From assembly GCA_963783885.1 (NCBI GenBank), contig CAWAPJ010000001.1:96001-160000 (forward strand): 64,000 nt of DNA, in the 5' to 3' direction. A program made the position numbers and the translations under genes. The stretch is from Waddliaceae bacterium. Lineage in GTDB: Bacteria > Chlamydiota > Chlamydiia > Chlamydiales > SLFE01. Positions 2,866 to 7,758 of the stretch are shown here, piece by piece; position 1 is the first letter of the stretch, and each line of letters begins with the position of its first letter. A model generated the notes under the pieces. The model searched no databases and was not told the origin of the DNA. It saw nothing but the letters and a program-made list of their open reading frames with translations.

Positions 2866-3908
2866 ACCCTGATTGCTACCTAAACTTGTCGTTAAGGTCT
2901 TTCATTGAATTCAGATGCGTAGACTCGATTTGAAGGCAAGGGTAATCCTTTGCCGATAATCGAGGCTTAGCAGATGGATTCAATGAAAGATTTTAACGGC
3001 AATAGACTCATGTGATAATTCCTTAACCAAAAAAAGGAGTACATCATGGAAACTTATGCAATAACCGTTGATGTCATCAGCGAAGAAGTCCTTCGAATTT
3101 TAGGGGTTAAAGACGATCCTCAATCTCAAATGTCCAATGCAGAAGTTATAACTTTTGCAATTTTATCAGCAAAATATTTTTCTTGTAACTATAAAATATC
3201 CAGATATTTATGTAAGAGATTGCGATTATTCACAACTATTTTAAGCAATAGCCGACTTAACCGTTGAATCCATAAAATTCCCTGGACTTGTTGGAACGCT
3301 ATTTTCCGTTTTTTAGCTTTATTTTTTAAACAAATAAATAAAGATCAAGGTTTTGCTATAGATAGCTTTCCAGTTTCTTGCTGCCAGAAAAATAGAATCG
3401 ATAAACGGAAGATCTTTCTAGAGCGAAGGTTTTTTGGTTACGCAGCTTCTAAAAAGCGTTATTTTTGTGGCATAAAAGTTCATATGATTGTGACGAGTGA
3501 AGGCGAGCCGGTTGAAGTTCTTTTCAAGCCAGGAGCAGTAAGCGATGTAAAGGTACTCTGGGAGATGGAGTTGGACATACCGCCAGATTCTAAACTCTTA
3601 AGCAGATGGCGCCTATAATTGTTTTGATCTAGAGGACATCTTGCATGAAGAACAAATTACATTGCTTGCAAAACGGGGATGCAGAACGAAAAAACGGGTC
3701 CGAACACCTATTGAAGAGAGGGAAATCAGTAGCAAGCGACAAATTGTCGAAACGACGTTTAGCTGTATAACAAATCTTTTTCCTAGAACTTTTAAGGTCT
3801 GCACTGAACAAGGCTTTTTGATAAAAGTATTCTGTACAATTCTAGCCTATAGCGTTTCATTTTTATGCAATAGTAAGCTCTAGCTGAGGTTTAGGTAGCA
3901 ATCAGGGT
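2866..3908 (+). mobile_element. IS982-family element, copy 1 (defective)
   Basis: TIRs ACCCTGATTGCTACCTAAAC / GTTTAGGTAGCAATCAGGGT; 5-bp TSD CTAAG (2861-2865, 3909-3913). Confidence 0.92.
3046..3883 (+). pseudogene. IS982 transposase pseudogene
   Basis: Closely similar to 24118-24957 but has a TGA at 3265-3267 and a 1-nt insertion near 3598. Confidence 0.9.
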
Positions 3909-4079
3909 CTAAGGCAGCTCTATTACTTATTTGAGTCATATCTTCATCAGAAAGGTCAAAATCAAAAACATTGAAATTATCAGCAATGTGGCTTGGATTA
4001 GAACGGCTTTGTTCTCTAATCGCGCCGTTTTTAGTCAAACATTTTCTCTTCTCCATAAAGAATTTTGAAAAAAGTCTCT

Positions 4080-4240
4080 TTTATCGCCATAACACACTCC
4101 CTTGGTTCTCTCCGGGATCTACTTTGGAGAGCGGTTTTCTCTGCTCTCGTCCCAATATATTTTTCGAAATAAATCAGGGCAGGCTATGTTGCGTGCGGAG
4201 TCTAAAGCTCCAAACAAGGCCGCGCCTTGACCTGATTCAA
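4080..4240 (-). ncRNA. Predicted bridge/seek RNA of the IS110 element (target- and donor-binding loops); exact ends unknown
   Basis: Minus strand: stem-GGCCTTGTT-hairpin-ACGCAACA-stem matches the target; AAATATATT-hairpin-AGAGAAC matches the donor junction. Confidence 0.75.
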
Positions 4241-4299
4241 ATCGGTATGTGTTTCTGGCTTAAAAATTAACTTCTCTCCACCATTTATTCTGGCTTCAA

Positions 4300-4366
4300 G
4301 CTCTGCTTTCCTCTTTTTTCGGCCTCTCACCCGGACTTGAAGGCCGAAAAAAGAGGAAAGCAGAGC
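4300..4366. repeat. Perfect 26-bp inverted repeat right after the IS110 transposase stop codon
   Basis: gctctgctttcctcttttttcggcct / aggccgaaaaaagaggaaagcagagc with a 15-nt loop. Confidence 0.9.
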
Positions 4367-4375
4367 GGGGTAAAT

Positions 4376-5434
4376 TTAAGCTGCTACCGGTTCCTTTTTT
4401 ATACTCTCTTCCTTGCTGTCTCCGTACCGGAAGGGTTCGCGTTTCAAAAGCATCGCATGCATGATGACAGCCAGCTTCCTGCCGAGGGCAACTGTCGCCT
4501 TTTTGAAGCCCTTTTTTCTTTGAAGTTTCAACGCCCATGCCTTAGGTTTACACCAACTTCTAGTTCGGCTTAGCATCACAACTGCCGACTCCACTAACAA
4601 CGACCTGGTTTGTCTAGATCCGCACTTTGACACACGACCTAATCTTTGGGTCTCTCCTGAGGAGTACTGCCTTGGTGTTAGCCCCAAAAATGCAGCGACG
4701 TTCTTCGAGTTTTTGAAGCGGGTGTAATCACCAATCGCCACGAGATAGCTCAAGGACGTTAAAACCCCGATACCAGGAATTGTCATCAGCAGTTGGACAT
4801 CGGCGTTGTCTCGAGCTATCGACGAGATCTGTTTCTCGAGGTTGGTTATTTGTTCGGTTAAACATTCATATCCCTTTAAAAGTGCTTCGATAGCTGCTTG
4901 TACGGAGCTTATTTGATCTTGGATGCACTCCCGAACCAGCTTGATAAACAACAACTTTCCGGTTGTAGAAACAGTTAGTCCATAAGCTTTTAAAAAACCG
5001 CGAATTGCATTTTTTAGCTTTGTGCGCTCTTGAACCAGGGTGCTCCTTGACTGAAGGAGAACGCCTGTATCGACAAGCTCTTGGTTTTTGACGAACACCT
5101 CTTTGTAAAAGCCTCCTCGCATGGCATTAGCTATTCCCCGCGCATCATTGGTATCTGTCTTGTTGATGTTCATGGACAGAATCGAGGACATATGTCTTGC
5201 ATCCACGCATAGGACTGGGAGGCCGAGCTTTCTTAGCTCAGTAACCAACCAGTGGCTTAGGGAGCCTGTTTCAATCCCAATCTTATCGAGCTGAACCCCG
5301 GTTTTCAAAAGCTTCCGTTGGATTGATGAGGGGTCTGTTTTGGTATGTCCTTCATACACTACCTCTCCTTGGTGGTCTACGACACAAATAAAAGTCTCTT
5401 TCAAAGATACGTCTAATCCTACATAATGGTTCAT
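4376..5434 (-). CDS. IS110-family transposase/recombinase (DEDD)
   Basis: YVGLDVS, IGIETG, NKTDTNDA, IPGIG, GLTPRQYSSG (catalytic Ser), SKCGS, VALGRKLAVIMHAML. Confidence 0.96.
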   Translation of the reverse strand: MNHYVGLDVSLKETFICVVDHQGEVVYEGHTKTDPSSIQRKLLKTGVQLDKIGIETGSLSHWLVTELRKLGLPVLCVDARHMSSILSMNINKTDTNDARGIANAMRGGFYKEVFVKNQELVDTGVLLQSRSTLVQERTKLKNAIRGFLKAYGLTVSTTGKLLFIKLVRECIQDQISSVQAAIEALLKGYECLTEQITNLEKQISSIARDNADVQLLMTIPGIGVLTSLSYLVAIGDYTRFKNSKNVAAFLGLTPRQYSSGETQRLGRVSKCGSRQTRSLLVESAVVMLSRTRSWCKPKAWALKLQRKKGFKKATVALGRKLAVIMHAMLLKREPFRYGDSKEESIKKEPVAA

Positions 5435-5622
5435 GGCTGCTTCTCCTTTTTGGTTTTGGCCTTCGAGGCCGTGTTATTCCAATGGAGAGTTTATATAAAC
5501 TACTCCGCGGCGTTTTGCCAGAGAAGCAGCCTTTCGTTTAACTAAGCAGCGCGATTACAATATGTTGCGTAATTAACCACAGAGCTCACAAGAGCGCACA
5601 GAGAGAATATGAGAGATTTGAT

Positions 5623-6567
5623 TTAAGCTGCTATTAATTCACTTTCAGGCATTCCCAGCTTTGTCATTATATTTAGTGCTTCACATTTTGCCCTTGATTC
5701 AGCCCTTTGGGTTTCCAGAGTTCTACTTCTTAAATCATTTCCAAAGAATCGTTTAAATCTAAACATGGCTGTTTCTGCAAGTGATCGACGATGATAACCT
5801 TTCAACTTTTTCCATAATTTTCTTGCATCATCATCACCTCCTAAACCTGAAATTTCCAGCAAACTGATATTCCGCATCTTCCAAGAAGGAGATATGTTTT
5901 CTCGAAAAACAGCATTCCTATTGGGTGGAATAATAGGAATTGAGCCGTGAACTACATTTGCAGCATAGCATCGCTTAGTATCATAAGCCCCATCTCCATA
6001 TGTGCGCTTAACTGATTTCGGCATTACCTCGAGAAGTTTTGGATACACTTCACAATCTGCAACGTTATTTTCAGTAAGAATTTCGAAAATAATTTCGTGA
6101 GAGTCAGGGCAGACTGCCAGATGGAGCTTTCTCCATGTTCGCCTTTTACTGATTCCATGCTGCCTAACTTTCCATTCACCCTCTCCGTACACTTTCAAAC
6201 CGGTTGAATCGATTACAATATTGGTGACTTTTTTTTTCGAAAGTTTCTTCAACTCTTGCCCCAACAACTTAGCTCTCCGACAAATTTGAGTATAAGAAGG
6301 AATCGATAAACCAACAGATAAAATCATAACAAGAGATGTCAAAAATCCTTCGAGTGCTCTCAATGGAAGATGAAAAACCGATCGAATAATGAGCGCGGTG
6401 AGAATAGCGTCATCAGAATAGAGTTTTGGACGCCCCTTTTTTCCTATTTCTTTTGGAGCCATCCACTTATTGATAGCATCTTCAGAAAACCAAACAGTTA
6501 TGCTTCCCCTTTGAATAAGAGATTTGTTATAGTCGTTCCAGTTGCGAATGCGATATTTTGCCTTCAT
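5623..6567 (-). CDS. IS5-family transposase, IS903 subgroup
   Basis: NWNDYNKSLIQRGSITVW, IDSTGLKVYGEGEWKVRQHG, RRTWRKLHLAV, GDGAYDT, GYHRRSLAETAMFRFK. Confidence 0.95.
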   Translation of the reverse strand: MKAKYRIRNWNDYNKSLIQRGSITVWFSEDAINKWMAPKEIGKKGRPKLYSDDAILTALIIRSVFHLPLRALEGFLTSLVMILSVGLSIPSYTQICRRAKLLGQELKKLSKKKVTNIVIDSTGLKVYGEGEWKVRQHGISKRRTWRKLHLAVCPDSHEIIFEILTENNVADCEVYPKLLEVMPKSVKRTYGDGAYDTKRCYAANVVHGSIPIIPPNRNAVFRENISPSWKMRNISLLEISGLGGDDDARKLWKKLKGYHRRSLAETAMFRFKRFFGNDLRSRTLETQRAESRAKCEALNIMTKLGMPESELIAA

Positions 6568-6651
6568 CTTGATCCTCCAATTTGTTGCAACTAAAAATTA
6601 GAGTATTAGGTATTTGTCGGCAAGCTCGCATTCGCCCTTTTTGGAGAAAAG

Positions 6652-7059
6652 ATGACTAGTACCCACACAACTGAAGAAGCCAACCAAAAAAGAAATGACC
6701 TTTTAACAGGGGAAATCATAGGTGCTGCGATTGAAGTTCATCGAAGATTAGGTCCAGGCTTGCTTGAATCGACATACGAAACTTGTCTTTGCTACGAGTT
6801 GAACCTTGCGGGTTTGAAAGTTAACCGGCAGATACCAGTACCTATTATTTATCGTGATAAAAAGCTAGACTCAGGCTACCGGATCGATATGATAGTGGAA
6901 GATAAGGTTATTTTGGAGATAAAATCTGTGGCCAATCTCTTGCCTGTTCATGAGGCCCAACTTCTATCCTATCTTAAGCATAATGGCGGTGGCAGAGGTT
7001 TGCTCATCAATTTCAATGTAAAACTTCTAAAAAATGGGATTAGGCGTCTAATCATTTAA
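6652..7059 (+). CDS. GxxExxY protein (PD-(D/E)XK nuclease-like)
   Basis: IGAAIEVHRRLGPGLLESTYE, YRIDMIVEDKVILEIKS, HEAQLLSYL, GLLINF. Confidence 0.92.
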   Translation: MTSTHTTEEANQKRNDLLTGEIIGAAIEVHRRLGPGLLESTYETCLCYELNLAGLKVNRQIPVPIIYRDKKLDSGYRIDMIVEDKVILEIKSVANLLPVHEAQLLSYLKHNGGGRGLLINFNVKLLKNGIRRLII

Positions 7060-7758
7060 TTCCTCTCTCATAATCTCTCAGTGAGCTCGGTGGTCTCAGT
7101 GGTGATTTATGCAACAACGCCGATTAGAACTGCCGGGCAAGGGAATAACCTCTTTTTGAATGATCCAGCGCAATGCAACCTGCCCGGAGCTTTTGCCATA
7201 TTTCTTGCCAATTTCAACAAGCCCCGCATCATTAGCAAGTTTTCCCCGATTTAGTGGCCTCCATGCTTGTATTTTAATCTTATTTCTTTGGCAGAAAGAG
7301 ATTAAACTGTCATCGCAATAGTCGGGATGCATTTCATTCTGAACCCATGATATGGGAACACCCACATCAAAAGCTCGTCGAAGATGGTTGATTGTCACGT
7401 TGCTCATTCCGATTTCGCGAACTTTACCTTCTCTTTGTAATTTCTCCATTGTTGTGAGAGTTTCGGTAACGCTAGTTTGACTGTTCGGCCAAAGGTAATT
7501 GGTGATTTCTGAATAAGGTCATTTCCCAGATGTTATGGTGTTCATGATGACTCCTTTAGAAAAAAGAAAATTCTAAACACTCAACTTAAATTGGTCAATT
7601 TATTCGTCGATTTAGAAAGGGAGCCTGGGCAGTATTTCTTACCAGATCTCGAGGCAAGCTGGGCAGGATGTTGCTTCAGATTTGTTTTTAAATGCCCTCT
7701 GGCATTGTCTGATCGATAAGACGAGGGCATTTGAGGACGAAGATGGAGTGACAAACTG

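Follow-up and report, generated by a model that had tools for sequence, protein, structure and literature searches.

An IS1111-type insertion sequence of a chlamydia occupies the terminal inverted repeats of IS903-like elements and carries a predicted bridge/seekRNA matching its target

Introduction

Why does one insertion sequence sit within the last bases of another, and is this site chosen? The question is raised by a stretch of 64,000 nucleotides (nt) from a Waddliaceae bacterium of the Chlamydiota (assembly GCA_963783885.1, contig CAWAPJ010000001.1, forward-strand positions 96,001 to 160,000), which we call the window and in whose numbering positions are given. There, an IS1111-group element of the IS110 family, 1553 base pairs (bp) long, splits a terminal inverted repeat (TIR) of an IS903-like insertion sequence. 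We consider it very probable (about 0.88) that the whole explanation is RNA-guided targeting, in which the IS1111 element finds the IS903-type TIR through its own bridge RNA, or seekRNA.

The mechanism would involve several steps. The element's DEDD/serine recombinase would be guided by a bridge (seek) RNA from the 362-nt region downstream of its gene, of which the target loop would pair with both strands of GGCCTT-GTT-GCGT and the donor loop with the joined ends of the element itself. Recombination would take place at the shared GTT/AAC core and put the element after base 9 of the TIR, its 3' end toward the tip of the repeat, without target duplication. The element would move through a circle with the predicted junction ...CAATAT-GTT-CTCTAAT....

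Results

An IS1111-group element splits the TIR of an IS903-group element

The insert has the following parts.

4014-5566, minus strand: IS1111-group (IS110-family) element, 1553 bp, absent from nine otherwise identical TIRs and skipped, as 1553 bp, in a contig of run X1
5564-5566: copy of the GTT core at the 5' end of the element
5558-5563: 6-nt extension ATATTG (transposase strand) at the 5' end
5544-5557, unstranded: sub-terminal inverted repeat of the 5' end (pair I10)
4376-5434, minus strand: transposase gene, 352 amino acids, DEDD and IS116/IS110/IS902 C-terminal domains (PF01548, 4.1e-20; PF02371, 8.6e-25)
4300-4366, unstranded: perfect hairpin with 26-bp arms just past the transposase stop codon (pair I1)
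4017-4030, unstranded: sub-terminal inverted repeat of the 3' end (pair I10, 14 nt, 86%, with a perfect 9-nt core TAATCGCGC)
4014-4016: 3-nt extension GAG (transposase strand) at the 3' end

At the left junction GGCTTTGTT (4005-4013) gives way to CTCTAATCGCGCC from 4014, and at the right one GCGCGATTACAATATGTT runs up to 5566 and is followed by GCGTAATTAACC from 5567. Both junctions carry GTT (or TGTT), and the borders can be shifted by at most 4 bases; the extensions of 6 nt (ATATTG) and 3 nt (GAG) assume that GTT/AAC is the core. Removal of the insert in silico yields GGCTTTGTTGCGTAATTAACC, which agrees with the opposite TIR at 17 of 21 positions (mismatches at 4, 12, 16 and 18 in a hand count). 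Given nine uninterrupted TIRs and eight near-identical copies of the host elsewhere in the genome, the segment 4014-5566 is an insertion. A first-pass annotation had quoted the same junction strings, which are exact, and the same 17/21 match of the restored word. It had placed the element at 4005-5580, an interval that covers it and takes in 9 and 14 bases of the split TIR as well. The host ends at 7121 and not at 7122.

A number of features identify the insert, as that annotation had proposed, as IS1111-type. Its transposase scores 270 bits (cut-off 140) with the NCBIfam model NF033542, 'IS110 family RNA-guided transposase', and the C-terminal half aligns to the IS621 recombinase (PDB 8wt6) with an E value of 2.6e-16. 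Within it, GLTPRQYSSG aligns to GLTPRRYESG of IS621 and fits the motif GL-P----S(t)G, and NKTDTNDAR aligns to NKTDTVDAR. According to PMC11187229, the hallmarks of IS1111 elements include sub-terminal repeats some 11-13 bp long, extended by 6-7 bp on the left and by 3 bp on the right; the transposase gene is followed by a long non-coding region, and the transposase itself measures 330-350 amino acids and has the GL-P----S(t)G motif. We assigned membership on sub-terminal repeats of 7-17 bp with extensions of 6-7 bp (5') and 3 bp (3'), and the insert has these, together with both domains, the motif, and a non-coding region of 362 nt downstream (4014-4375) of the transposase gene as against 132 nt upstream (5435-5566). 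Judged by these features, 4014-5566 is an autonomous insertion sequence of the IS1111 group. The hairpin at 4300-4366 may be a terminator or a processing site between messenger and guide RNA; relatives at loci L074, L075 and L085 have equivalent long hairpins of different sequence.

The host element is laid out around the insert.

3996-4004, unstranded: left copy of GATTAGAAC, the 9 bp duplicated on insertion of the IS903-like host (direct repeat family D17)
4005-4013, plus strand: outer 9 bp of the host TIR, GGCTTTGTT, severed from the remainder; uninterrupted copies read GGCTTTGTTGCGTAATTAACC
5567-7121, minus strand: remainder of the host, with the inner part of the split TIR from 5567, the transposase, a passenger open reading frame and the intact TIR
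5623-6567, minus strand: host transposase, 314 amino acids, DDE type (PF13737, PF01609; NF033579, 289 bits)
6652-7059, plus strand: passenger open reading frame, GxxExxY / PD-(D/E)XK type (PF13366, TIGR04256)
7101-7121: intact host TIR, which reads GGCGTTGTTGCATAAATCACC
7122-7130, unstranded: right copy of the 9-bp target duplication (direct repeat family D17)

This is an IS903-group (IS5-family) element of 1564 bp without the insert, spanning 4005-7121 with it, and its transposase is 46% identical to the annotated IS903B transposase over 99% of the length. We took TIRs beginning with GGCTTTGTTG plus a 9-bp duplication as the mark of the IS903 group; the ends found here are GGCTTTGTTGCGTAATTA and GGCGTTGTTGCATAAATC, and comparison with those of IS903B (GGCTTTGTTGAATAAATC, from a Klebsiella plasmid, locus L094) and ISSod12 (GGCTTTGTTTCCTAAAT) makes the host repeat one of IS903 type. 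The TIR ends, the transposase and the duplication thus bear out the earlier view that the insertion lies inside an IS903-type repeat. That repeat is cut after base 9, reading GGCTTTGTT, then 1553 bp, then GCGTAATTAACC, with the host copy of the shared GTT core at 4011-4013.

The same site is occupied in several independent contexts

The genome that we searched comprises 46 contigs and 2.16 Mb, and it holds only two copies of the IS1111-type transposase. The second, on contig 19, matches the window copy at about 100% identity across 1568 bp and lies after GGCCTTGTT and before GCGTAAGTTCTAATTAG. Here the host is a different IS903-like element, with a frameshifted transposase that shares 48% identity with that of the first host, and the TIR is occupied at the same position; the empty form of this host end, GGCCTTGTTGCGTAAGTTCTAATTAGA, is present on contig 14. 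The same element is seen in a host repeat of the first type, with another outer flank, on a metagenome contig (L073, whose transposase is 100% identical) and on a contig of run X2, and in run X4 it follows GGCTTTGTT with a fourth outer flank. The uninterrupted GGCTTTGTTGCGTAATTAACC is found at nine other places of the genome (C3, C4, C5, three times C8, C10, C12 and C16), and the host transposase has eight further full-length genomic copies, 98-100% identical in protein, all without the insert. The other TIR of the window host (GGCG...GCAT) is never occupied in the genome.

The empty state was also found at the window locus itself. A contig of run X1 joins 4009 to 5563 beside the unique flank of the locus, skipping 1553 bp, and we take this as genuine evidence for an insert-free form of the locus; the contig is compatible with a state before insertion or after precise excision. 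An occupancy of about 50%, read from the depth of X1, was discarded as a candidate figure: there is one depth value per contig, and no X1 contig has the occupied junction together with the flank of this locus.

The element has left shorter traces as well, namely solo remnants of its 3' end.

C19:4624, C10:82075, C12:21794, C43:23017, C35:11752, C8:98668 and C29:602 (loci L002, L006 and L007): solo remnants of the 3' end

These remnants, of 8 to about 45 nt, stand directly after GGCNTTGTT at all seven places and in the same orientation, and in three of the seven the inner part of the repeat directly adjoins, so that both junctions are exact. Solo 5' ends were absent from the genome, where the 5'-end pattern occurs only in the two full copies. 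Our best guess is that the remnants arise by aberrant excision via an internal AAC core. Random decay would neither preserve both junctions nor prefer one end. Around the contig-19 composite (L002, 1501 and 4190), the far repeat of the host is replaced by a 34-nt remnant of this kind, and about 38 bp of the host end are missing when compared with C43.

Taken together, the four contexts of full copies and the seven remnants all follow GGCNTTGTT, with the 3' end of the element abutting the outer 9 bp of the TIR in one orientation. At the four full copies, compared with the empty sites, the two junctions share only GTT, and the insert probably makes no target duplication. The first-pass annotation had suggested that this class of site is specifically targeted and that copies in unrelated sequence would speak against it; the check turned up none, which supports the specificity.

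Could the insert have entered an IS903-like copy once, at a chance position, and then have been spread as a passenger, the composite being moved by the IS903-like transposase or by homologous recombination between TIRs, in which case the shared flanks would say nothing of site choice? The 9-bp duplication around the window composite is what transposition of the whole composite would also yield; identity between the two genomic copies extends through GGCYTTGTT at one end and TGTTGCGTAA at the opposite end; and the contig-19 composite lacks a target duplication (ATTACAATC vs CTGAAATTT), which points to some rearrangement there. Yet the two hosts differ, with transposases 48% identical, the eight other full-length host copies are empty, relatives with 52-70% identical transposases lie in the same type of word with matching guides, and the same locus is known from X1 with the host element and without the insert, an empty site that largely refutes the passenger reading. 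We regard this explanation as highly improbable.

A further alternative concerns the borders, since what we read as the 3' end of the insert, CTCTAATCGCGCC..., could be the native inner TIR of a second IS903-like family, the true insert being smaller and deeper. Such a reading would account for GGCYTTGTTCTCTAATCGCGCC occurring without a transposase at the seven places, in one of them seemingly as the end of the IS903-like element of contig 19, beside the start of its transposase. It is nevertheless exceedingly improbable: the nine uninterrupted TIRs and the 1553-bp skip fix the start of the insert at CTCTAAT, a related element on C43 has a normal TIR, GGCCTTGTT...GCGTAAGT, around a 21-nt remnant, and conservation of the terminus ...GCGCGATTAGAG extends to other genomes and to relatives with different targets. 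The donor loop of the predicted RNA, to which we now turn, matches this terminus as well.

A conserved two-loop RNA is predicted downstream of the transposase

The candidate guide RNA and its loop strands are the following.

4085-4244, minus strand: predicted bridge/seekRNA with two internal-loop domains in the 3' non-coding region (covariance model R1, 146.8 bits; consensus fold)
4213-4221, minus strand: target loop, 5' guide GGCCUUGUU, equal to the plus-strand TIR tip GGCCTTGTT, with one mismatch to GGCTTTGTT at the locus
4188-4194, minus strand: target loop, 3' guide ACGCAAC, complement of GTTGCGT
4185-4187, minus strand: AUA next to the 3' guide (whole 3' strand 4185-4194), matching the first bases of the element's 5' end; handshake-like
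4155-4164, minus strand: 5' strand of the donor loop, AAAAAUAUAU, which matches, on the opposite strand, the 5' end of the element (ATATTG)
4103-4112, minus strand: 3' strand of the donor loop, GAGAGAACCA, which matches the 3' end of the element, ...TTAGAG, together with the core AAC

RNAalifold, applied to the window element and four relatives from the chlamydia order (transposases 46-57% identical), folds the region into two internal-loop domains; 15 of 35 pairs of this five-sequence alignment show compensatory changes. The covariance model R1 built from it detects the RNA in 19 of 26 sources; of these 19, 11 lie outside model building and reach E values of 1e-20 or better, and three alphaproteobacterial relatives score near 2e-4. 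Across the 19 rows, 91.2% of cells pair as against 77.6% in shuffles (none of 500 shuffles reaches the observed value), 21 of 35 pairs change on both sides, and controls with slid partners fall to 35-51% pairing. Between the two genomic copies, the sole difference within the guide-RNA region is at window position 4179, in the outer stem region of the target loop, which is G here and C on contig 19, as it is in L073 and in runs X2-X4.

Taken on the transposase strand, the downstream region consists of ...AAGGCG C-GGCCUUGUU-U, a hairpin GGAGCUUUAGACUCC, and GC-ACGCAAC-AUA GCCUG..., and the two strands of the target loop together spell GGCCTT-GTT-GCGT, the first 13 bases of the TIR of IS903-group elements in this genome. 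The second internal loop carries AAAAAUAUAU and GAGAGAAC; the former matches the element's 5' end on the opposite strand, the latter the 3' end with the core. An arrangement in two loops, target and donor, is the bridge RNA layout in the description of PMC11208160. The top-strand guide lies 5' of the bottom-strand guide, the order that PMC11187229 gives for IS1111 seekRNAs, and the bases adjoining the 3' guide recall the handshake guides of the abstract of PMC13626964. The guide is perfect for GGCCTTGTTGCGT, the repeat type of contigs 19 and 14, and has two mismatches to the window host's other repeat (GGCG...GCAT). Together with the near-perfect fit at the window locus, this pattern of mismatches would explain both the site and the single orientation of the insertion.

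Guides and flanks change together across relatives

If the loops are guides, they should follow the targets of related elements, and this is what we observed in a single table of loops and flanks, on which matches were counted by eye. The stems are conserved, the four loop strands are the most variable columns, and the guides of 15 related elements vary in concert with their flanks.

The reverse complement of the 5' loop matches the seven right-flank bases beyond the three-base core at 4-7 positions in all 18 rows that have a flank: at seven in the contig-19 copy, L076 and three Rhizobium-type rows, at six in the window locus, L011, L079 and L082, and at five in L073, L015, L075, L080, L081, L085 and L074. 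The 3' loop agrees with the five left-flank bases before the core at 3-5 positions in all 11 rows with a complete left flank, namely five in L074 and L079, four in the window locus, L073, contig 19, L075, L038, L081 and L082, and three in L015 and L080. The core covaries too: L076 has GAC at the end of the element and AGAGGAC in the 3' strand of its donor loop, and the Rhizobium-type relatives have AAG. So does the 5' strand of the donor loop, which covaries with the ends ATACTG, ATAATG and ATGCCA of relatives.

These data bear on a different view of the site, namely that the TIR is chosen through direct recognition of DNA by the protein, or through DNA structure, and that the matches between RNA and target are by-products such as sequence derived from the target. 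In its favour, the guide RNA is known here from sequence and fold, and the 3' guide also spells the junction left after insertion, TATGTTGCGT, and could in principle be a copy of it. Against this, the matching words form the two strands of a conserved internal loop with covarying stems; they vary with the flanks, including those of unrelated targets (the end of an IS630-like element in genome G055 and the AAG-core sites of the Rhizobium-type relatives); and, according to PMC11187229, the seekRNA of IS1111 members was shown to be both essential and programmable. We judge recognition by protein or DNA structure to be improbable and keep RNA guidance as the preferred explanation.

Relatives and their targets

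Relatives with 52-70% identical transposases (L074, L075, L079, L085, L078 and L038) lie in words shaped like TIRs, with guides that differ accordingly. Examples of their flanks are GGGATT-GTT-GCCTAATT, GACGTT-GTT-GCATAATT, GGCTGT-GTT-GAAAAATT and GGGGTT-GTT-GCATAACC. A tblastn search with the IS903-like transposase against 21 relative loci matched only L073, the other contigs having less than 280 nt of flank, and the flank of L038 holds an ordinary gene. For these relatives, the target that can be claimed is a 'TIR-like word'.

The clearest case of another target comes from genome G055, of the same order, which holds a relative with a 49% identical transposase (33 matches).

L015-L021 and L046-L071: G055 loci

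This relative lies between TATAC and TCGTTTG, 5 nt inside the end of an IS630-type element (DDE_3/HTH transposase). Among 26 such ends listed, nine are occupied and one has a remnant, two weak matches among 28 lines having been set aside. The nesting is reversed at L051, where an IS630-type element lies within the 5' end of the relative.

Further afield, the Rhizobium-type relatives (L039, L041 and L083), whose transposases are about 40% identical, have the same two-loop RNA with an AAG core, and their guides match the flank AAG-TTCCATA at seven of seven positions; the scaffold thus extends beyond chlamydia-like bacteria. In L038, a 56% relative from a metagenome-assembled genome of Chlamydiales, palindromic inserts resembling miniature inverted-repeat transposable elements interrupt the transposase gene and the downstream region (2701-2890 and about 3650-3815). 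We also looked, by eye, for a promoter at the circle junction: most relatives have a conserved TTGACT 25 nt from the 3' end, and no hexamer resembling a -10 box was seen 16-18 nt away across the predicted junction; we propose no promoter there.

Genetic context of the window locus

The IS903-group element disrupts an aldo/keto reductase gene, PF00248 being found on both fragments, weakly on the short one (E 0.0073). Its passenger gene (6652-7059) lies between the transposase and one repeat, and all full copies of the host are equally long, which indicates that this gene travels with the element. Positions 3040-3900 of the window contain broken open reading frames without Pfam matches that end in the word GGTAGCAATCAGGGTCTAAG; this word recurs on several contigs beside other insertion sequences (also in L006 and in the flank of C8:98668), and is probably the end of another decayed insertion sequence. 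Five TLC nucleotide transporters were found, which fits a chlamydia-like host.

Discussion

Our analysis answers the question of the locus at two levels. The identity of the element, its exact borders, the empty sites, and the recurrence of the same site and orientation in several independent contexts are established observations. Comparison of sequences also establishes a conserved two-loop RNA, as a predicted structure, with loop letters that change with the flanks across relatives. From these, RNA-guided targeting is read as the most probable explanation, and a number of points weigh against it. First, the fit is imperfect: the guide has one mismatch to the TIR occupied at the window locus (GGCC vs GGCT), nine equally good TIRs of the same genome stay unoccupied, and the match between guide and flank is weak (5' loop, four of seven) in L010 and L038. 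Second, the short side of the X1 contig with the empty site has 22 letters, because the host element is a repeat, where 31 are required for a bridging record; none of the X1 contigs has the occupied junction of the window locus, and the polymorphism between occupied and empty states may therefore lie between populations and not within one. Third, the 19-row alignment (A2) was fitted to the structure of the model, which favours the pair counts, and an Rfam scan of 3500-7500 returned no curated family, only sub-threshold hairpin look-alikes on the palindrome at 4259-4402 (Phe_leader and plant and animal microRNA models). Fourth, expression, processing and binding of the guide RNA are predictions from sequence and fold, and a look through the 22 listed runs turned up none recorded as RNA; the circle is likewise a predicted junction, of which the contigs showed no example.

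What would the insertion do to its host? The split of the repeat makes it plausible that the IS903-like element is disabled and thereby immobilised, in the view of the first-pass annotation until the insert excises. For an element of an intracellular bacterium with densely packed genes, another insertion sequence's repeat is a safe place to land, and a competitor is probably disabled at the same time. One may go further and ask whether there is a chlamydial clade of IS1111-type elements specialised on the tips of the TIRs of other insertion sequences, which retargets by mutation of the guide and leaves immunising 3' scars. We put this forward tentatively, as the less likely outcome. Such a clade might follow the variants GCGT, GCCT, GCAT and GAAA of IS903-type repeats and, in another genome, IS630-like ends, though we hold this with some doubt; it is similarly no more than possible that 3'-end scars left by aberrant excision could make a scarred repeat immune to renewed targeting. 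If true, these elements would be RNA-guided hyperparasites of transposons with a visible fossil record of their hits.

Whatever the fate of this extension, the locus offers a worked natural example of bridge/seekRNA targeting, in which guide, target, empty site and independent hits can be read in one genome and its relatives, and does so in a phylum where elements of this kind have received little attention. Among the relatives, one RNA scaffold carries guides that have been reprogrammed by nature, a series that could help those who engineer these recombinases.

The first-pass annotation had thought this class of target undescribed, a claim that does not survive comparison with the literature. 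The title of Müller, Lauf, Hermann 2001 (Mol Genet Genomics 265:1004; cited in PMC11208160) already names the inverted repeats of IS1384 as a specific target of IS1383, and in a table of PMC5141477 IS1383 is assigned to the IS110 family and IS1384 to the IS5 family. In Pseudomonas putida H, as here, an IS110-family element thus targets the inverted repeat of an IS5-family insertion sequence, although the host is a gammaproteobacterial plasmid and not a chlamydia, and IS1384 is not known to belong to the IS903 group; this comparison extends to the title and the family labels. Our literature search for other IS110-family elements in the repeats of insertion sequences returned only this pair, and the supplementary target lists of the bridge-RNA and seekRNA papers may hold more.

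Three other known systems help to place the element. IS4321 and IS5075, as cited in PMC11187229 (Partridge and Hall 2003), are IS1111-family elements that target the 38-bp TIRs of Tn21-family transposons. They share with the window element the sub-terminal repeats and the choice of a TIR of another mobile element at a fixed position and in a single orientation, and differ in that their target is a Tn3/Tn21-family and not an IS5-family repeat. The window transposase is about 28% identical to theirs, too distant for close kinship, which makes it a separate lineage doing the same thing. The seekRNA elements ISEc11, ISKpn4, ISPst6 and ISPa11, compared by their description in Siddiquee et al. 2024 (PMC11187229), likewise have a downstream non-coding region, the 6-7 and 3 nt extensions, the sub-terminal repeats and the GL-P----SG motif, and their RNA has a guide for each target strand in the order predicted here; what they target is a linear site, attC sites or REP sequences. 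Finally, IS621, in the account of Durrant et al. 2024 (PMC11208160; structure 8wt6), has, like the predicted RNA of the window element, a target and a donor internal loop, each pairing with both strands including the core, and the extra guide bases of the window RNA resemble the handshake guides described in the abstract cited above. IS621 is a member of the IS110 group whose RNA is encoded upstream of its gene and which has sub-terminal repeats of 2-3 bp and a CT core, whereas the window element has its predicted RNA downstream and a shared core GTT/AAC. Both the class of mechanism (bridge/seekRNA recombination) and the class of target (the TIR of another mobile element) are therefore already known, and the claim to novelty fails at that level; what is new here is the phylum, an IS903-group target that is cut after base 9, a guide that can be read from the sequence, and relatives that form a retargeted series.

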